From positions 1-34,519 of the IMG/VR virus record IMGVR_UViG_3300037424_003032: a DNA stretch of 34,519 bases. The stretch is one strand, 5' to 3'. The position numbers and the translations under genes are program-made. The notes under the pieces were generated by a model. It did not search any database, had not been told where the DNA came from, and saw nothing but the letters and a program-made list of their open reading frames with translations. Of this stretch, positions 1,548-34,519 are shown in pieces. This DNA comes from a virus. Taxonomy: Duplodnaviria > Caudoviricetes. Position 1 is the first letter of the stretch. The number at the start of each line of letters is the position of its first letter.

Positions 1548-1892
1548 TTACGGCGTCAGCACCTTATCTAATATAGTGTTCAGCACAAACAACAGCACGG
1601 CGGAGGCGAACACCCACGCGGCGTTCTTGATGCTGTTGATATTTTTTTCTACTGTAACAAGTTTGTCCATCGCAAGTTCAAACTTGGTCACCAGGCCAGT
1701 TTTTGGATCCCCATTGCCTGTTAGGATTTTGTGGTCTCTCTCTTGCAGTTCTTTCATCCCAACAATTTCAGCGGCGCGAATTTGACAAACTGCGGCCACT
1801 CCTGGGGTTGTCTGTTTCGACATAGCTTCACCAAGGGCATTCTCCACTAGCCCCGGTAGCACATCTTTGATGGCTTCGATGACGTCGGACAT
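1548..1892 (-). CDS. Small phage coiled-coil protein with C-terminal TM anchor (holin/XhlA-like)
   Basis: GNG..GL motif, coiled coil, single C-terminal TM; AGGAG RBS; last gene of the tail operon. Confidence 0.6.
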   Translation of the reverse strand: MSDVIEAIKDVLPGLVENALGEAMSKQTTPGVAAVCQIRAAEIVGMKELQERDHKILTGNGDPKTGLVTKFELAMDKLVTVEKNINSIKNAAWVFASAVLLFVLNTILDKVLTP

Positions 1893-26574: not shown

Positions 26575-26970
26575 TTAACCAGTAACTGCGGGCAACTGGG
26601 CCGGCTCATCCAGGTCGAAGAAGTCGAGGCCAATCGCTTTGACGTCAAGCACAGCTTCCTCGATGAGCTTGTCGGCCAGCTCGGCGGTCATCGGAATCTT
26701 GTATTTGCCAGCAACGCTCATGACAAACATAACGGCAGCCTGTTTCTTTTTGGCGCCTTCTTCCGCGGACCAAGCCGGAGACTGTTCCAGCCACTTCACC
26801 GCGGTGGCCGCCTGCGATTTCATGAAGTCCCATTGGGCCACAGAAGTCTTGGATTCCAGGTACATCTTGACGATGTTGACACCATAGGCGGCAACTGCGG
26901 TCACTATCGCGCCTAGTGCAAAGACGAGATTTGCAACCATTTCGGGGGTAATAAAGTCGTTCAATTCCAT
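26575..26970 (-). CDS. Phage holin, LL-H family
   Basis: N-terminal TM, AVKWLEQ, GAKKKQAA, IEEAV; AAGGAG RBS. Confidence 0.85.
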   Translation of the reverse strand: MELNDFITPEMVANLVFALGAIVTAVAAYGVNIVKMYLESKTSVAQWDFMKSQAATAVKWLEQSPAWSAEEGAKKKQAAVMFVMSVAGKYKIPMTAELADKLIEEAVLDVKAIGLDFFDLDEPAQLPAVTG

Positions 26971-27069
26971 GCTGTGCTCCTTGTTTTTTGATGACGCGAG
27001 AACTTAATTAACTTATCTACTTTCTATTAAGTAATCTATTAATCTACTCTTCGCGTTTGACGCCCTGTG

Positions 27070-27098
27070 ATTGTAGCTCATTTGTTCCGGTATGTCAA
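27070..27098 (-). promoter_or_regulatory. Promoter of the morphogenesis operon, TTGACA-17-TACAAT
   Basis: Near-consensus elements with 17-bp spacer, about 100 bp upstream of the holin. Confidence 0.8.
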
Positions 27099-27105
27099 GG
27101 TTATG

Positions 27106-27164
27106 AACCGTATGGTTTTCAACTCGTCCACTTCTCTCACGGCTAACTTGCCAACCGAATGGTT
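27106..27164. promoter_or_regulatory. Two operator-like sites AACCG(T/A)ATGGTT at 27106-27117 and 27153-27164
   Basis: Quasi-palindromic 12-mers, 11/12 identical, at divergent promoters. Confidence 0.55.
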
Positions 27165-27250
27165 CGACGATATGCTTACAGGTATCCACAAGCACATTGG
27201 AAGGTTAAAGCGCGACTGCCCTCCGTTTCCCACAGAGGGCAGTCTGTTGT
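27148..27250 (+). ncRNA. Candidate sRNA unit 1 (promoter TTGCCA-17-TATGCT plus 10-bp hairpin 27214-27244)
   Basis: Promoter geometry and GACTGCCCTC/GAGGGCAGTC stem; no RBS-led ORF downstream of the promoter. Confidence 0.4.
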
Positions 27251-27315
27251 ATCCAAGTGGACCTATGCCTACTGAATAATCAAAGTTCAGCCGGCATTAC
27301 CTCAAACGGGCGAGG

Positions 27316-27466
27316 GTTTACAAAACTGTTCGTTGACTTTCCACTTTGCTGCTTGTATTATGGTGTTGCATATTGTTTCTTTGACAGATTGGGAAATCTG
27401 TCGGCCAGCCGCCCCGCTAATTCCCCACTGGCATGGGGGTCCTCCAGCGAGGGCGGTTGGCTTTTC
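27316..27466 (+). ncRNA. Candidate sRNA unit 2 (promoter TTGACT-17-TATTAT, two hairpins, T4)
   Basis: GACAGATT/AATCTGTC hairpin, then GCCAGCCGCCC/GGGCGGTTGGC stem ending in TTTT. Confidence 0.55.
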
Positions 27467-27489
27467 AATAATCAAGTAAAATACCCTAC

Positions 27490-27768
27490 ATGGAACAACC
27501 AGAAGATAAGCCAAAAACTACCGGCGGGCTGTCAAAGACTTCGCCAAGAAACACCGGTGGGCTTCCAAAAACATCATCCTTGTCTAAGCGTGATTTTCCA
27601 CTTACTCAGGTAGAGCTATATGCTTACTTTGTTGTGCTTGCAATGGTAGTTCTATCTGGCCTCGTGATACCCCAACGGATACTTGACGAGTATGAAATGG
27701 CATTTCTGCTGTTGGTCGTGCTGCCGTTCTTGGCCTGGTCTGGCCGGATAATTCTAAAGTCAGGCTAG
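27490..27768 (+). CDS. Hypothetical two-TM membrane protein
   Basis: 92 aa, duplicated TGGLxKTS motif, two TM helices; no clear RBS. Confidence 0.45.
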   Translation: MEQPEDKPKTTGGLSKTSPRNTGGLPKTSSLSKRDFPLTQVELYAYFVVLAMVVLSGLVIPQRILDEYEMAFLLLVVLPFLAWSGRIILKSG

Positions 27769-27903
27769 TTTACAAATCTGTTCGTTGACTTTTCACTCCG
27801 CAGTCCGTAAGATATAGGCACCACGCATGCAAATGCGATGGGATGTAGACAGGAACAATACCTGCCGGCCCGCGCCCCGCTCCCCTGCGGGCGTTGGTTT
27901 TTA
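27768..27903 (+). ncRNA. Candidate sRNA unit 3 (promoter TTGACT-17-TAAGAT, three hairpins, T5)
   Basis: 30-bp promoter block is 28/30 identical to unit 2; CGCAT-GCAA-ATGCG GNRA hairpin; terminator-like end. Confidence 0.55.
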
Positions 27904-27944
27904 ATAAAGCAAAGGCTGGCAGTGTGGATACCACATCCCGCGAG

Positions 27945-28052
27945 TGGACAATCTGAGCCTTACTTTTGTATAATATGTATGCACCAGAGCGAGGCCATTG
28001 CGACCTCGCTCCTCAACCATAGGGCTTGCGCGGCAACGCAAGCCCTTACTCT
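27945..28052 (+). ncRNA. Candidate sRNA unit 4 (TGGACA-18-TATAAT, two strong hairpins)
   Basis: GAGCGAGG/CCTCGCTC and AGGGCTTGCG/CGCAAGCCCT stems. Confidence 0.4.
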
Positions 28053-28177
28053 TCCGGGCGGAATGCGTCAGCTAATAGTTTCATCGTCCAGACAATCAGC
28101 AACCATTGGCCAACAAGCATCCCTGCCAGGAAAACAATGATGTAGTCTGTCATTGTTACCTCCATATTCTAGGGCGG

Positions 28178-28381
28178 TTAACGATAGGCGGCGCGAATAT
28201 CAACGCGCTCATAGCCACGGCTCATGAACTGCTCTCGAATTGTTTCAGGCGTCAATTCGAGGACTTCGACCAAAATCTCGAACCAGTCGGAGTGAACGAA
28301 TTCCACTACGTCCGCCTGGAACTCTGGGTTATCCCAGTCCTGAACTGCTTTGAGCAATATTGCACCAAGCAATCTGTTCAT
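28178..28381 (-). CDS. Small phage-type hypothetical protein
   Basis: LLGAILLKAVQDW ... FVHSDWF pattern that I recall from small prophage proteins; AAAGGA RBS. Confidence 0.75.
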   Translation of the reverse strand: MNRLLGAILLKAVQDWDNPEFQADVVEFVHSDWFEILVEVLELTPETIREQFMSRGYERVDIRAAYR

Positions 28382-28412
28382 TATGTTTCCTTTCTACGGC
28401 ATCACCGCAAAC

Positions 28413-28453
28413 AAAAAAGGCCCAGCACACCTGTTTTTGTGTGCTGGGCCTTT
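28413..28453 (-). terminator. Leader terminator (attenuator) upstream of the 67-aa gene
   Basis: 15-bp stem AAAGGCCCAGCACAC/GTGTGCTGGGCCTTT with T6 on the minus strand. Confidence 0.8.
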
Positions 28454-28557
28454 GCCAGAAAAAAAACCCAAGCACACATGATCAAAACAACGTACAACTT
28501 ATTATGATCTGTGCGTCTTGGGCAACTGATGTGGCAGCCCAAATGCAGCTTAATCTA

Positions 28558-28587
28558 ATTATACAATTTTATGAATTAAATTGTCAA
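28558..28587 (-). promoter_or_regulatory. Consensus promoter TTGACA-18-TATAAT
   Basis: Both hexamers perfect, in AT-rich context. Confidence 0.75.
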
Positions 28588-28617
28588 TTAATAACTTGCC
28601 ATCTTTTCAAAAGTCAT

Positions 28618-28631
28618 TTCCGACGTCGGAA
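28618..28631. repeat. TTCCGACGTCGGAA palindrome at right edge of phage module
   Basis: Exact 14-bp palindrome about 30 bp upstream of the -35 box. Confidence 0.95.
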
Positions 28632-28756
28632 TACTAGCAAATCGCCCCGCGCCACCCTCTCTTCACGGCAAGAAATCCTCAGGCATTTCTGTAACAGAAT
28701 CAACGATAACCACTTCTCCATCTCCTAGAAAGTCAACTCTTAGCTCTGACTGGGTA

Positions 28757-29104
28757 TTATTTCGTCACTACTACAAATATCATTCCTCGTTTCCTGCACC
28801 AATTCTTTGCCGCTTCGTGTTTTCTCATGGTGTCTAGATTTTTCATATACTGGCCGCCTTTGATTTCGTGAAGCTCCTTTGAGCCATCAATTCTTTCAAG
28901 TAGAAAATCAGGGCGGTAGCCACGCACGTTACCCGCCTCAGTTACGTATTGAATGGTGATACCATGATTTTTTGTCCATTTGATTACCGTTTTATCGCGT
29001 TCTAGCCGCTTCATATACTCACGCTCCCAGCCGCTGTCAAATCGCTCAACGGAGAATGCGCTTTTAGTGGGATTTTCAAAGTCGCCATGCTCGCTGGTTG
29101 CCAT
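28757..29104 (-). CDS. Stand-alone PD-(D/E)xK endonuclease (TnsA-N-like; equivalent to Type III Res nuclease domain)
   Basis: FDSGWE, WTKN, YRPDFL and EIKG motifs; GGAGG RBS inside the end of the helicase gene. Confidence 0.85.
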   Translation of the reverse strand: MATSEHGDFENPTKSAFSVERFDSGWEREYMKRLERDKTVIKWTKNHGITIQYVTEAGNVRGYRPDFLLERIDGSKELHEIKGGQYMKNLDTMRKHEAAKNWCRKRGMIFVVVTK

Positions 29105-29105
29105 T

Positions 29106-31100
29106 TTATTCCTCCACCTTGTAAATGACGATGCTATTTACTAAGCCTGGTTTGGCTTTGATGTTTGCGTGCATTTTACCGATGCGGTTAAGCGCGTGGC
29201 GCAATTCTTCAAGACTAGCTGTGCCAACAGTTTTTTCATTTAGCATCTTACGGTTCACGTGGTTCATAAGCGCTCCGTAGAAGTAGCCGAGTTCATGCGA
29301 TCCAACACCTTCATCAGCTAATAATTCAGCAGCAATGTCGCGAACACTATTTTTCAAACGGTCTGCAAGTTCTACAGGGTCGGTAATATCTTCAATTGGC
29401 ATTTTGATATCGAACCCGACCGGAGCTCCGCGTATTTCTCGAAAACCGGAGCCATCCAGCGCTTGGCCTTGCACGCTTTCAATTTCAACACGAGTGATTT
29501 CAGTTTCCACACTATAGTCGAATTCATCGAGGATCTTTTGCCAGTTGGGGTAATCGCCCGTTTCAACGTAAAGGCCGGCTAACTCATCATCAAAATCTGC
29601 CTTCTCTTCTTCAAGCGGAGTAGGAATTTCGATTAGCAGTTCGGGGTTGGCGACAAATTGCGGTTTGCGTTTGGGCGGTAGATCTTCATCACCGAACATG
29701 CTCAACTGCTCAACATTCTTACGAACTTTCGCGCCGACCATTTCCCACAGCCAGTCATGCTGAAGTTTTTCATGATCGATAATGGCGCAGATCTCTTGAA
29801 TATCTTCATTACGCACGTTGAGGCGTAAGCCGCGTCCGACTACCTGTTGACCATAGACACGCGATGAGAACTTACGCAGCAACAAAATGACTGAAACAGC
29901 GGGAACGTCCCAGCCTTCACGTAGCATGAGCACGCTGACGACTGCCTGATAAGGGCTACCAGATTTGCCCAATCTGCGAGCTTCATCGCGCTCTTTTTCA
30001 TCAGATTGTTCTGTGACAAGCAGTGTGCGGACCTTGAACTCCTTTTCGAGCATATCACGTGCTTGGATGGCGTCTTTTATAGTAATTGCGACAACAAATA
30101 ATATCGGCTTGTACGTGCTTTTGCCTAATGTCGTGGCGCGCCGGTCTTGTTCCTTCAGACGGTCTAGTGCAATGCGCATTTGTTTGCGCATCGGGTCGGC
30201 GTCTGTAACCCACTGGGTGGAGCTCAAACCTTTTTCGATCCGCTCAAATTCCTCATCCATCTCGTCCACAGTACGCTTTTCACCAGTTTCAGGGTTTGTG
30301 TATGTCAATTCTACAGACGAGAGTTTTGGCTGATAGACTACGATATGTTTGATGATAGGCGGTACTTCGGCTTGAGCATCGGTAATCCCGTATTCGTAGA
30401 TCATCTTGCTGTCAGGCGCTTGACCATCAGCGCGGTCGGGCGTGGCAGTAGTGTCCAGCCGAAATTTGGAAAGCTGTGTGAGGATGAAGAGTGTCCTGTC
30501 GTATTCCGCGGCTGGTGTGTTGTGCGCCTCGTCGTTGAACACAGCTATTTTTTCATCAGCATTCATCAAAACCGCTAAATTTCGCTTGCCGTTGCTGTTG
30601 GACTGATATAGTTGCTGGATATTGCCAAGAATAACCCCGTTATCACGAATGCCCTGCGGGCTTGACCCTGGCTCCATAACATGACAGCCCAATTCATTGA
30701 CAAAATGCTCTGTACCAGGAGGAAAAAATGCGAATTCCCGGAACACTTTGCTGTCATTGAAATCATCTTCTAGACGGTCACGTACGATGGTATTAGGGCA
30801 TAACAAGATAAACTTGTTGAAGCCATGACTTATTTTCAGCCATGCCACAACTGCCCCCATGATAGCAGTCTTACCTCCACCCGTGACAATGTTGAGAAGT
30901 TGTTCGTGCCACTGAAGCAATTCATAAGCATAAACCATCCGCATGAGAGCTTCTTCTTGGTGTCGCCACAATTTGCGAGGCGCGTCTGGTCGGGTTATGT
31001 GGACCAAGAAATCGCGCGTCAATGGACTGACATCCGGATAGGCGCGGGATTGCCACCAATCGGTAAAATCCTGTACGTATGGCGCAAAAGAGTTATACAT
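29106..31100 (-). CDS. Type III restriction Res-like SF2 helicase lacking its nuclease domain
   Basis: TGGGKT, DEAH, TATP, MLREGWDV and QVVGRGLR motifs. Confidence 0.9.
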   Translation of the reverse strand: MYNSFAPYVQDFTDWWQSRAYPDVSPLTRDFLVHITRPDAPRKLWRHQEEALMRMVYAYELLQWHEQLLNIVTGGGKTAIMGAVVAWLKISHGFNKFILLCPNTIVRDRLEDDFNDSKVFREFAFFPPGTEHFVNELGCHVMEPGSSPQGIRDNGVILGNIQQLYQSNSNGKRNLAVLMNADEKIAVFNDEAHNTPAAEYDRTLFILTQLSKFRLDTTATPDRADGQAPDSKMIYEYGITDAQAEVPPIIKHIVVYQPKLSSVELTYTNPETGEKRTVDEMDEEFERIEKGLSSTQWVTDADPMRKQMRIALDRLKEQDRRATTLGKSTYKPILFVVAITIKDAIQARDMLEKEFKVRTLLVTEQSDEKERDEARRLGKSGSPYQAVVSVLMLREGWDVPAVSVILLLRKFSSRVYGQQVVGRGLRLNVRNEDIQEICAIIDHEKLQHDWLWEMVGAKVRKNVEQLSMFGDEDLPPKRKPQFVANPELLIEIPTPLEEEKADFDDELAGLYVETGDYPNWQKILDEFDYSVETEITRVEIESVQGQALDGSGFREIRGAPVGFDIKMPIEDITDPVELADRLKNSVRDIAAELLADEGVGSHELGYFYGALMNHVNRKMLNEKTVGTASLEELRHALNRIGKMHANIKAKPGLVNSIVIYKVEE

Positions 31101-33139
31101 CAGGCAATCTCTAACATTTGAACAGTCGTTCGCTCGCCGCCTTGGTCATCCTGCACGGAGCAGGCAATTGTATACGTACCAGGATCGGGAAATTCGTATT
31201 CAACTACCAAGAGTGGCCGCTTGGTCTGTTTATCGCGCAAAAAAGTGTAACCTTGGGTCGAAGTGAAATGCCCTTCATGATGATCAAAATCCCACTGGAC
31301 GTTGGCAATTACACCGTCTTTGTTCAGACTAACTGTTTCCGAAACATCAAAGCGATAGTTGCGTTTGCCTATACGTTCGATCTTGATGCGTACTTCAGGC
31401 GGTTGGACGAAACTGAGCAAGGGCGCATATTCGACGCTTTTATCTACGATGTGTTGGCGAAATTCTTCATCCTCCAGCCGGATCAAATTTAGTCGCACGA
31501 AATCAATACGCTTGTTCTCACGCGCCGCAAGAATTTCAGCAGCTTTCCTCGCATCGGGGCCAAAGTTCCAGCCGAGCATCACGCCATGATTGACGCGACG
31601 TTCTTCGTAGACGGCTTTGGCGAATTCTGCCACCTCTCCTTTGCCAATGCGTGAGCGCCGAGAGGGGTTTCCCACATATAGCGGGATACCATAGCGCGTG
31701 CCATGAATAGAAATTGACACGTTTTCCGGCTTGCCTCCGAACGCTCTGACAACGAACTCGCGAAATATTTCGATTGGATATTGCTCCAGTTTTGGCGCTT
31801 CGTAAATCCCCCAATGCTCGACAGTAAAATCAGGTACGGGGAACAGAGCGCCAATTTCCTCCTCGACCACCTTTGCGACGCGGTCGGCTGTGATCGCAAC
31901 GGCAATGCGGCTCTGGTCACAAGAAATCCAACGACGATTAAGCCGTTGGGCAACAGCGGGCGTTGTCCCACCACCGCAAAAGAAGTCGGCAACGACATCG
32001 CCTTCATTGGATGATGCAGTGACAATCCGTTCAATCAAAGGCTCCGGCTTTTGTGTTGGATAACCAATACGCTCATTTGATGTTGCATTGATGACATTTA
32101 AATTCCACACGTCAGTCATGGCGACGCCGGTTTTTAAGTAAACCTTGGCACGATATTTTTGCCCATCTGGATCACGTCTGGTTGTCAATCGGTATTTGCC
32201 ATCTTTATCTTCGTATTTATAACGGCTATCTCGCTCATCTAGTGAGCCTTGCGAATACTCTTGCAAAAGGGTATTGAAATTAAATTCAGGTGATTTGGAA
32301 TAAAAAAGGAGAGTGTCATGCTTCCTTTGAAAATGGGTTTCATTTTGCGTCGCTTTTGGGCCATAATACCAGACGATTTCATTGACATAATTTTCCACCC
32401 CGAAAATCTTGTCCATCTCTACTTTCACGTAGTGGCTTGCGTGCCAATCCAAATGCACATAAATCGAGCCGGTCGATTTGAGCAGGCGTTTCATTTCCCA
32501 CAGGCGCGCATTGAGCCAAACCAAATAGCCAGGCATACCACCTTCCCAAATATCTGAAAAGGAGCGCACTTCGTTCTTGTCGCCAAAGAGAACGTTGTAA
32601 TTTCTTCCAGAGAAGAAGGGCGGGTCAATGTAGATAAGGTCAATACTTTCACTGGGTAGTTGGCGCATCACGTGCAGGTTATCGCCAAAGAATAATCGGT
32701 TCGCTCCTGTTGGGAATAAGGCAGCCAGTTTTTTGTTTTTCTGATTATCTTCTAAATAACGTTCGCTATGCCCGAACTCAATTCGCTGAACTTCCTGGAA
32801 GGGCAAACGAATTGTCGGATAAGCATGCTGGAACTTCGTCACCTTCACTTCATGCCGGCGGGTCTCTACTTCCCAGCCGAGAGGGGCTTCGTCCACAGGT
32901 ACAGCCCCGAAGCGCGTTGGCAGTTGGAAATATTCCTTCTGTTCAGGAATGGTCTCATCTTCCTCAGGTGGTTGAGTGAATGAAATCTCGGGACTTTTTG
33001 GCCTGGCGTACCCGTATCCTGGCAGTTCGGAGAAAAATCGTGCAGTATCATCTGCCGTTTTTTTGGATTTCATGGAAGGCGGTTCTATTCCGCTGAGGCT
33101 GGCCTGTAGACGAGACAATTTCTTCTTTTTGCGTGGCAT
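31100..33139 (-). CDS. Beta-class N6A/N4C DNA methyltransferase (Mod-like) with REase-like and PKD-like C-terminal domains
   Basis: IYIDPPF, YPTQKP, DFFCGGGTT; C-terminal VQWDFD...YEFPDPGTYTI..V.DD.GG. Confidence 0.9.
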   Translation of the reverse strand: MPRKKKKLSRLQASLSGIEPPSMKSKKTADDTARFFSELPGYGYARPKSPEISFTQPPEEDETIPEQKEYFQLPTRFGAVPVDEAPLGWEVETRRHEVKVTKFQHAYPTIRLPFQEVQRIEFGHSERYLEDNQKNKKLAALFPTGANRLFFGDNLHVMRQLPSESIDLIYIDPPFFSGRNYNVLFGDKNEVRSFSDIWEGGMPGYLVWLNARLWEMKRLLKSTGSIYVHLDWHASHYVKVEMDKIFGVENYVNEIVWYYGPKATQNETHFQRKHDTLLFYSKSPEFNFNTLLQEYSQGSLDERDSRYKYEDKDGKYRLTTRRDPDGQKYRAKVYLKTGVAMTDVWNLNVINATSNERIGYPTQKPEPLIERIVTASSNEGDVVADFFCGGGTTPAVAQRLNRRWISCDQSRIAVAITADRVAKVVEEEIGALFPVPDFTVEHWGIYEAPKLEQYPIEIFREFVVRAFGGKPENVSISIHGTRYGIPLYVGNPSRRSRIGKGEVAEFAKAVYEERRVNHGVMLGWNFGPDARKAAEILAARENKRIDFVRLNLIRLEDEEFRQHIVDKSVEYAPLLSFVQPPEVRIKIERIGKRNYRFDVSETVSLNKDGVIANVQWDFDHHEGHFTSTQGYTFLRDKQTKRPLLVVEYEFPDPGTYTIACSVQDDQGGERTTVQMLEIA

Positions 33140-33334: not shown

Positions 33335-34519
33335 TTAGCCCTCCTTCTTTCCAAGTAAGTAATCGGGCATAAGGAATTCTTGGGGGATTTCCTTTTCTCT
33401 TGGAAGGTAGATAGCAACCGGTATTCTAAGACGTGATAAATATCGGCACATCAATGGTCCAACATCCTTCCATTCTAGTTTGCCAAGCCCACATCCCAGG
33501 GCGGGAAGAGCTATTGACCTGATACCTTCAGCCTCATAGTTTTCAACAATCCATTGCAAGCCTTCTTCAATCGCTTTCAGGTCAGAGTTATCTCGCCAGT
33601 GGCGCTTAGTCGCGAATAACAAAAACCACTTGACAGTATTCGGTATATCTAATGCGCCAGGTTCATCTGTTAGTTCTTCATCAAATGAGGCCTCCCGCTT
33701 ATAAAGATATGGTCTACCCATCTTTAACCGGTTCATTCGGCAAGCATCTTGATAAAAAACATACACATCTGGGAACTGATACTTCGTTCGTGAGGCAAGA
33801 CCTTTTCCCATAACGCCTACAACATTTACGCTCACGGTTAAGGTCTGCATTTTGGAGAAGAACATATCCCCGTCAGCAAGGGATAGATTATTGGTGACCC
33901 GGTATCCTTGAGCGGGAAGGAAGAACATTGTTGGCTCGGGGATTACTGGCAATGGTTTTGGATGTATGATTTGCCTTACATGATCGGCGACATTGTGATT
34001 CTTGACGAAAATGCTATGAATAAGATCAGGGGGTATGGATGATGGTACTAAACACTCTGCCATGATTTTTCTCTTTGAACCATCAGCCGAGTTCCACCAT
34101 TCTCCTGTTAGGGTATTCCAAATTTCAGTAATTACTTTGATGCCTTCTTTAAGATTATAAAATTCTGTTACGTTGTTCGCAGCGTTTCCATCGGTTATAT
34201 AGACCCCGGGTGCTTCAAGGACACGCGGTGCTATGCCTAAAATGACAATTTCCTCAGCACCAATCTCGTGTACAACGCGATAGAGCATTGGGTTTCGTGC
34301 TTGAAAATATACATTTGCATATTCCCAAAGACTTTGGTCATCTGGTGTTGTCTTCAACTGTCGGTGACCGACAATCTCAGCATCGTATATCGTTGTATAC
34401 TGAATTTGATTATCTGTGATGTAGCGATGTGACAATATACCGTGCGTCAGAATAGATTGCAGGTTACTGATATGTGTGATGTAGTAGAGGCTTTTTATTT
34501 GTGGTTTCTTCTTAGCCAT
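33335..34519 (-). CDS. DarT (DUF4433) DNA ADP-ribosyltransferase fused to DarG-type macrodomain
   Basis: DarT: LYYITHISNL.SIL..GILS, YFQARNPMLY, TDGNAA, AECLV. Macro: GDMF, VNVVGVMGKGLA, FATK.HW, SIALPALGCGLG. Confidence 0.9.
   Translation of the reverse strand: MAKKKPQIKSLYYITHISNLQSILTHGILSHRYITDNQIQYTTIYDAEIVGHRQLKTTPDDQSLWEYANVYFQARNPMLYRVVHEIGAEEIVILGIAPRVLEAPGVYITDGNAANNVTEFYNLKEGIKVITEIWNTLTGEWWNSADGSKRKIMAECLVPSSIPPDLIHSIFVKNHNVADHVRQIIHPKPLPVIPEPTMFFLPAQGYRVTNNLSLADGDMFFSKMQTLTVSVNVVGVMGKGLASRTKYQFPDVYVFYQDACRMNRLKMGRPYLYKREASFDEELTDEPGALDIPNTVKWFLLFATKRHWRDNSDLKAIEEGLQWIVENYEAEGIRSIALPALGCGLGKLEWKDVGPLMCRYLSRLRIPVAIYLPREKEIPQEFLMPDYLLGKKEG

Follow-up and report, generated by a model that had tools for sequence, protein, structure and literature searches.

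The CI RNA of phage P4 and the C4 RNA of phage P1 are prophage small RNAs that act in trans on structured leaders gating toxic small genes. IsrK of Salmonella Gifsy-1 is described as a prophage small RNA that likewise acts in trans on a structured leader gating toxic small genes; its target is a read-through version of the transcript it comes from, and the control is exerted on translation (PMC4825925).

A second kind of system is the type I toxin-antitoxin locus, for which convergent, 3′-overlapping antitoxins and small hydrophobic toxins are given as the usual Gram-positive layout (PMC8167048). In the Bacillus prophage loci txpA/RatA, bsrG/SR4 and yonT/SR6, a small hydrophobic peptide gene lies in a mobile element (PMC5848175; PMC8167048), an antisense RNA from a convergent promoter overlaps the 3′ end of that gene (PMC8167048), and yonT in addition lies in an operon (PMC5848175; PMC8167048). 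Sibling small RNAs are a third kind. The streptococcal csRNAs are encoded by a number of short, related genes in each genome, which have a common promoter element and are under one regulator (PMC4507080), and for the Rsa RNAs of S. aureus, RsaE and its kin, an unpaired C-rich loop is reported whose UCCC motifs bind Shine-Dalgarno (SD) sequences (PMC2790875). In search listings of the openly accessible literature, we found no description of regulatory small RNAs in Anaerolineae.

Here, we analysed a cluster of four promoter-plus-hairpin units in a virus record, which a sequence-only reading had taken for one array of small-RNA genes that could serve as antitoxin-like RNAs, anti-defence decoys or regulators of RNA switches. 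Our own reading, which we hold to be evenly poised between right and wrong, is that the cluster is a mosaic of unrelated units, in which units 2 and 3 would be sibling base-pairing small RNAs, unit 4 an antitoxin-type antisense RNA and unit 1 an early promoter with a hairpin.

RESULTS

Genomic setting of the cluster

The window, by which we mean the whole virus record of 34,519 bases, carries phage late genes (holin, terminase, portal, capsid and tail) on its minus strand, and these adjoin a gene-poor stretch at 26970-28750 (Table 1). Beyond that stretch lie restriction-modification-like genes and a DarT-Macro fusion. The former are a trio of a methylase with a C-terminal PKD domain, a ResIII helicase and a TnsA-like nuclease (28757-33139, minus strand), adjoining the cassette described below; the latter is one open reading frame, cut by the window end, in which a DarT toxin domain and a Macro domain are fused (33335-34519, minus strand). 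The phage region at 1548-26970 holds late genes only, and the window showed no recognisable gene for an integrase, a repressor or replication. Because most named terminase relatives are Anaerolineae, Anaerolineaceae or Chloroflexota (four of five named proteins; five of seven genomes), the host of the prophage is likely an Anaerolineae bacterium. The palindrome CCGACGTCGG occurs in seven copies across 1503-28629, some of them near both ends of the phage region; it is seen in related loci too and may be a host-lineage repeat.

In related phages, the same genes follow the holin, which is the first late gene and has a strong promoter before it (a comparable promoter precedes the holin in most of the relatives listed), and a divergent promoter leads into early genes. 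Most of the relatives examined carry early genes at the position of the units (17 loci read); in this window, units 1-4 stand there instead. The same holin is also found on a 50,855-bp contig. In the spacer of the holin promoter, a TGTTC-ending motif (27076-27090) is conserved in L036, L068, L069 and L071, and resembles a LexA-type box.

Table 1. Features in and around the promoter-hairpin cluster, in window coordinates
Feature	Coordinates	Strand	Remarks
Holin (Holin_LLH), first gene of phage late operon	26575..26970	-	Pfam PF09682, E 6e-10
Late (holin) promoter, divergent from unit 1	27070..27098	-	11/12 consensus matches
Unit 1 promoter-like site, at position of the phage divergent early promoter	27148..27176	+	9/12
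Unit 1 predicted short RNA, 13-bp hairpin (27214-27244), weak tail	27183..27250	+	z -4.2
Unit 2 promoter and conserved upstream element common to unit 3 and family	27316..27361	+	30-nt repeat
Unit 2 predicted small RNA, ~98 nt	27368..27465	+	z -4.9; family model 93 bits, training sequence
-10 box (27477-27482) and 92-aa ORF (27490-27768)	27477..27768	+	best 19-aa hydropathy 2.29
Unit 3 promoter, paralog of unit 2 promoter	27768..27813	+	promoter match and 30-nt repeat
Unit 3 predicted small RNA, ~83 nt	27820..27902	+	family model 83 bits, training sequence
Unit 4 promoter	27945..27974	+	11/12
Unit 4 predicted two-hairpin RNA (27987-28011, 28021-28046)	27981..28055	+	convergent, overlaps end of 35-aa gene
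35-aa membrane peptide gene (28046-28153) and GGAGG ribosome site (28159-28163)	28046..28163	-	hydropathy 2.16
67-aa conserved small protein, first gene of cassette operon	28178..28381	-	homologs 66-85%; 60% in L003
Attenuator-like leader	28410..28551	-	z -7.0
Cassette operon promoter, perfect consensus	28558..28587	-	12/12; also 12/12 in L003

The four units as a set

The four plus-strand sigma70-like promoters of the sequence-only reading are borne out at 27148, 27333, 27785 and 27945, with 9, 10, 9 and 11 of 12 consensus matches. Four such sites fall in 27100-28060, where 500 shuffles gave 0.49 on average (P = 0.004); the stretch was picked post hoc. The strong hairpins said to follow each promoter are present in units 1, 2 and 4 (folding z-scores of -4.2, -4.9 and -4.75), and the fold of unit 3 is marginal (z of -2.0; 12 of 300 shuffles fold equally well). 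Clear T-tracts were correctly seen in units 2 and 3, with four T at 27462-27465 and five T at 27898-27902; units 1 and 4 end in weak pyrimidine tails. The absence of any ORF led by a ribosome-binding site is literally true of the plus strand, but it overlooked the 92-aa ORF between units 2 and 3, as well as an SD-led minus-strand ORF of 35 aa that overlaps unit 4.

The idea of a single, prophage-specific four-unit array did not hold. Alignment was found between units 2 and 3 alone, which belong to a family on host contigs; neither unit 1 nor unit 4 is related to that pair. As stand-alone small-RNA genes with promoter and terminator conserved across genomes, units 2, 3 and 4 do agree with the earlier proposal. 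A homologous array was sought in related phages: blastn of the unit region against the 62 TerL loci fetched returned nothing, and so did the family model R1 (see below) over 22 of them. Holin-based locus scans for relatives were nearly empty (0 of 16 genomes in one scan), 14 weak DNA matches in 401 genomes of the class were at chance level, and GenBank phages gave no match. A search of Rfam, suggested as a check, yielded no match in the window at the gathering threshold, chance-level matches at E up to 10, and, with RNA anti-CRISPRs made of a solitary repeat in view, no CRISPR-repeat match, while eight related loci matched tRNAs only; anti-defence decoys thus found no support.

Unit 4 and a membrane-peptide cassette

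Unit 4 closes a cassette that is composed, in order, of a promoter (28587-28558), a structured leader with a terminator, a 67-aa gene, a 35-aa membrane-peptide gene and, convergent to these, unit 4. The 67-aa protein matches PHROG 7024 (unknown function) weakly. Among ten homology-search matches, one, L003, is a true homolog; the nine others (L004-L012) are unrelated long membrane proteins and were dropped, and three further loci (L074-L076) hold distant relatives of the 67-aa protein without the cassette.

L003 aligns to the window cassette with 68% identity over 518 columns. The unit 4 promoter has an identical -35 box there, a -10 box identical at five of six positions and the same spacing around a diverged spacer. 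Of 19 base pairs in the unit 4 hairpins, 15 are the same in L003, three are changed on both sides, one on one side and none is broken. The peptide is conserved as well (69% identity over 32 aa), with 10 non-synonymous and 6 synonymous codon changes. A third locus, L176, found in one of 400 genomes, has a promoter, two hairpins (z of -4.7) and an overlap with the end of an SD-led hydrophobic ORF of 43 aa; its RNA has the same layout as unit 4 without evident sequence likeness, and its 67-aa gene is interrupted by an internal stop. At the DNA level, a convergent promoter with two hairpins overlapping the end of an ORF is thus kept at all three of three loci.

Two further observations concern the mobility of the cassette. 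In L003, 26-nt direct repeats of 85% identity (193-218 and 1205-1230) flank the 1-kb cassette, a possible trace of insertion. In L176, the cassette (841-1140) appears by eye to interrupt an ORF after a sliding-clamp-like gene, which suggests that it inserts into other mobile elements.

Like type I toxins, the 35-aa peptide is shorter than 60 aa, hydrophobic and preceded by its own GGAGG ribosome site, features that are kept in L003 and L176. It matches no Pfam or PHROG family, its Atlas matches (0.77) were uninformative, and neither it nor unit 4 showed homology to a described toxin or antitoxin family in Pfam, PHROG or Rfam. Based on this arrangement and on its likeness to the Bacillus loci, unit 4 is likely an antitoxin-type antisense RNA that would silence a candidate toxic membrane peptide, so that the suggestion of antitoxin-like RNAs fits this unit, convergent as it is on a small membrane-peptide gene. 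We propose that the unit 4 RNA would pair with the 3′ end of the peptide mRNA and promote its decay, and that the peptide would be toxic and its expression doubly blocked, once at the leader terminator and once through unit 4. The 35-aa gene shares with yonT its place in an operon; in contrast to the Bacillus loci, there is no sequence family match, the candidate toxin is acidic, the likely host belongs to the Chloroflexota and an attenuator-like leader is present.

Might unit 4 simply be where the 67-aa/35-aa operon terminates, with the peptide being a phage membrane protein of the ordinary, non-toxic sort? Hairpin 2 of unit 4 does resemble a terminator at another locus (L077), the window and L003 carry its loop in inverted orientations, and the peptide carries a negative net charge (net charges of -2 and -3; -2 for the 35-aa peptide). 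However, a plus-strand promoter at the right distance is retained in the window, L003 and L176, and the pyrimidine tail of unit 4 lies on the plus strand rather than on that of the operon. Counting against the antisense reading, in turn, are the acidic charge of the peptide, its numbers of non-synonymous and synonymous codon changes, the internal stop in the 67-aa gene of L176 and, on the minus strand, the lack of a U-tract after either unit 4 hairpin that would mark the end of the peptide mRNA. We consider a mere terminator unlikely, and retain for unit 4 the reading as an antisense RNA.

Units 2 and 3 belong to a dispersed gene family

The predicted RNA of unit 2 consists of a single-stranded 5′ tail, a short hairpin and the family terminator with an inserted hairpin; in unit 3, the family terminator is slightly degenerate and has a C-rich loop. 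Upstream, the 30-nt promoter elements of the two units are 93% identical (27768-27797 in unit 3). With up to two mismatches, this element is found at seven places in 5 of 151 genomes of one Anaerolineae family, compared with none in the control. At four of these places a variable stretch and then a GC-rich terminator follow, as in units 2 and 3, and the other three (L091-L093) precede protein genes, by eye of HU-type (L091 and L092) and single-strand-binding (L093) proteins. The element also stands before an ssb-like gene at L154; its place ahead of protein genes suggests a regulon. A reading as a LexA box was rejected, as the spacing does not fit that motif.

Two model searches extended the family. 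A first model, R1, built from six sequences, gave 15 matches (four of them training sequences), spread over 8 of the 16 genomes searched in a single Anaerolineae genus, with one to three matches in each positive genome, and matched in 4 of 150 genomes of the Anaerolineae family. The second, R2, built from 17 sequences, gave 19 matches at E < 1e-4 in the same genus, including four new ones (one complete, two with other terminators and one without a terminator); in the order, it matched 2 of 150 genomes, namely the training genome and one promoter-only match. Thus, as among sibling small RNAs, several homologous stand-alone short genes occur per genome, with up to four copies. One candidate member (L098) was rejected by eye. 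At two host loci, weaker second units of about 21 bits each stand in tandem with members (L125, 15036-15158; L129, 10205-10295). Contigs of a possible source run carry further promoter and 3′-half copies, one at the depth of the window, and are not independent of it.

All 17 aligned members retain TTGAnn-17-TAnnAT, partly by construction. The terminator stem is paired at 81.5% with double changes at 6 of 11 pairs, in an alignment fitted to the structure, and 3 of 500 shuffles reach equally high pairing. The stem is also conserved in sequence, with CG in 14-17 of the 17 members at five positions, and covariation in it is slight because this core is nearly invariant. CCC or CCT is found in the loop of 12 of 17 members, compared with 3 of 74 other T-tailed hairpins on the same contigs; since the members share ancestry, the C-rich loop may reflect inheritance and not selection. 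Within subfamilies, different genomes carry a conserved 5′ domain (L110, L111, L121 and L122; L124 and L155).

The family lies on host chromosomes and is therefore not prophage-specific. Its neighbours, judged from the 76 scanned of 115 flanking ORFs, are for the most part ordinary host genes, alongside some of mobile or defence type. In an exact-pattern scan it was not seen in viral contigs. Given its presence on host contigs and its absence from the related phage loci and viral contigs searched, we regard units 2 and 3 as prophage-borne copies from a small-RNA gene family that belongs to the host lineage. On sequence grounds, they are paralogous copies of a dispersed, genus-restricted Anaerolineae gene family without an Rfam match.

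What would these RNAs do? The family likely makes sibling antisense RNAs of 60-100 nt. We propose that the RNAs of units 2 and 3 would be produced and repress mRNAs in trans by base-pairing, with the C-rich terminator loop as an anti-SD seed and the variable 5′ domain setting the specificity, and that the shared upstream element may be a transcription-factor site co-regulating the siblings. Target prediction, which had been proposed for the element and its host, covered 27 start regions of the window and gave no strong target for any unit: energies went no lower than -7 to -11 kcal/mol, compared with -23 kcal/mol, opening costs included, for a comparator RNA-target pair in L003. Unit 2 with the start region of the peptide or the methylase was unremarkable after opening costs. 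The members' own flanks of about 10 kb held no better partner than the flanks of other members, two genome-wide look-ups returned the members themselves and chance-level matches, and units 1-3 showed no convincing target in cis. With no targets found, the case for an antisense mechanism is made from the anatomy of the units and from analogy: the presence in one genome of several related short RNA genes with a common promoter element recalls the streptococcal csRNAs (PMC4507080), and the unpaired C-rich loop recalls RsaE and its kin (PMC2790875). The csRNAs are highly similar to each other, whereas in the present family nothing but promoter and terminator stays constant and the 5′ domain differs widely between members; the family has no Rfam match.

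The empty target searches would also be expected if units 2 and 3 were protein-binding sponge or decoy RNAs, in which a protein would bind the stem and C-rich loop while the 5′ domain served as a free spacer; the conservation of the GC stem in sequence, beyond what pairing demands, and the several copies per genome agree with this. Such a spacer, however, would have no need to be kept within subfamilies across genomes, and no protein-binding motif is repeated in all members. A 12-nt repeat of one subfamily, tried as an operator, lay inside ORFs at 11 of the 12 further places examined. We therefore judge a sponge distinctly improbable.

To the same low degree we credit the view that the units are promoter-plus-terminator cassettes without RNA function, be they attenuated leaders, insulators or remnants of mobile elements. 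At 14 host loci, the next downstream ORF is on the same strand in six cases (81-346 nt away), on the opposite strand in seven and absent in one; the six would be consistent with leaders, but the seven facing an opposite-strand ORF are not leaders. The promoter element drives protein genes too, yet the exact promoter spacing and the terminator are retained in all 17 aligned members. Proximity to tRNA genes, seen within about 0.4 kb at 5 of 19 member loci, compares with 3 of 20 control loci, which does not show an enrichment at tRNA sites.

Finally, unit 2 stands about 25 nt ahead of the 92-aa ORF, but this ORF has a -10 box of its own: TAAAAT ends 7 nt before the ATG. Its C-terminal half is hydrophobic. 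A homolog (42% over residues 40-91, E 2.7e-6), found in one of five genomes (G491), adjoins an integrase and has a -10-like box just before its ATG, and diverged copies are present on three contigs of the possible source run. Given the -10 box before the ATG here and in the homolog, the gene is likely leaderless, and the ORF is probably a leaderless membrane-protein gene. For units 2 and 3, we keep the reading as likely sibling antisense RNAs.

Unit 1 as a probable divergent early promoter

No homolog of unit 1 was found. Outside the training sequences, the family model scores no part of the window higher than the unit 1 hairpin, at a level that is not significant (11 bits, E 0.34). Relatives such as L016, L017, L042, L044, L051 and L054 have a divergent promoter here that mostly runs straight into an ORF, and unit 1 is likely the divergent early promoter of the phage, closed by a hairpin.

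At the same position L003 has another RNA, running from promoter to terminator (1419-1290, minus strand), whose loop can base-pair over 19 nt, 17 of them exact, with the ribosome site of a membrane-protein gene lying divergent to it (1821-1843, plus strand), at -23 kcal/mol. We take this divergent antisense pair to be of the tisB/IstR kind. Its complementarity to the ribosome site indicates that antisense RNAs do occupy such slots. Between unit 1 and the holin leader, no antisense match like that in L003 was found.

The attenuator-like leader and a candidate pairing in trans

In the leader of the window, helix A (28505-28522) pairs with B (28467-28484), a terminator follows at 28416-28453, and B can alternatively pair with the 5′ arm of the terminator; the energies are -23.3, -16.5 and -25.4 kcal/mol for A:B, B:C and C:D, respectively. 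In the nascent prefix B:C forms only if A is blocked, and at equilibrium the terminator wins. The leader of L003 (306-680) has three tandem hairpins with arms exchangeable down to the terminator, and the loops of its hairpins 2 and 3 can pair together (-11.9 kcal/mol).

Do the units regulate these switches, as the sequence-only reading had considered? In cis, the answer is negative: for none of the units does pairing with the leader of the window exceed chance, and a pairing of L114 with that leader was also at chance level (195 of 3492 windows). The complementarity to a cognate leader in the same element that marks CI, C4 and IsrK was not found. A lead came from another element. The 5′ domain of unit 3 pairs with hairpin 2 of the L003 leader over about 28 nt at -35.8 kcal/mol, stem differences being G-U compatible except for two. 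The score was reached by 0 of 2000 shuffles and by 4 of 1774 unrelated 375-nt windows; with 34 pairs tested, this corresponds to a family-wise chance of about 7%. In silico, unit 3 raises the sequestration of the terminator 5′ arm in the nascent L003 leader (436-659) from 0.01 to 0.75-0.92, compared with at most 0.36 for the 16 other members.

One may speculate that 5′ domains of the unit 2/3 family act as keys that pair with leader-hairpin loops of the cassette and thereby toggle the attenuator, so that the 67-aa and peptide genes would be turned either on, as a trap triggered by foreign RNA, or off, as immunity. The extended pairing with hairpin 2, the swapping of arms down the three hairpins of L003 and the selectivity of unit 3 over the other members agree with this notion, and IsrK, which switches on a toxic prophage gene in trans, would be a precedent (PMC4825925). 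The candidate pairing differs from IsrK in that it joins separate elements and concerns a transcription terminator. Against the notion stand, besides the unrelated windows that score equally and the family-wise chance, the mean z of 24 RNAs against four loops, which is near 0, and the failure of any unit to match the window's own leader. Moreover, if folding of the L003 leader begins at its start, sequestration of the arm is 0.55-0.65 already without unit 3 and 0.75-0.83 with it, 5 of 30 shuffled unit 3 sequences reach at least 0.66, and the completed terminator still forms at 0.98 when unit 3 is bound. Family and cassette were also not found together: the cassette was not found in the 16 genomes of the family-bearing genus (0 of 5 in a further check), and the family was not found in G422, a cassette-bearing genome. 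Overall, the notion is the least probable of those weighed here. If this long shot came true, units 2 and 3 would be modular RNAs, with fixed promoter and terminator and an exchangeable 5′ guide, gating a toxic peptide via a leader switch. Just as doubtfully, the tandem leader hairpins would relay the signal to the terminator in a natural RNA-triggered, multi-input transcription switch, and the whole might, at similarly slim prospects, be an RNA-recognition immunity or trap system between Chloroflexota mobile elements, with unit 4 restraining the peptide.

DISCUSSION

The features of the cluster are real and of ordinary kinds, and their families returned no match in Rfam or in the literature searched. 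From the sequence we infer that the predicted RNAs are transcribed. The family of units 2 and 3 is absent from Rfam, and motifs of the Weinberg RNA-motif supplement that are themselves absent from Rfam could bear on its novelty.

In summary, the analysis yields a defined and searchable family, in which a fixed chassis carries a variable 5′ domain, and, in mobile elements of Anaerolineae, a cassette that resembles a type I toxin-antitoxin locus and has an attenuator leader. If the pairing of unit 3 with the leader is true, it would provide a natural example of a small RNA that switches transcription and whose specificity can be exchanged.
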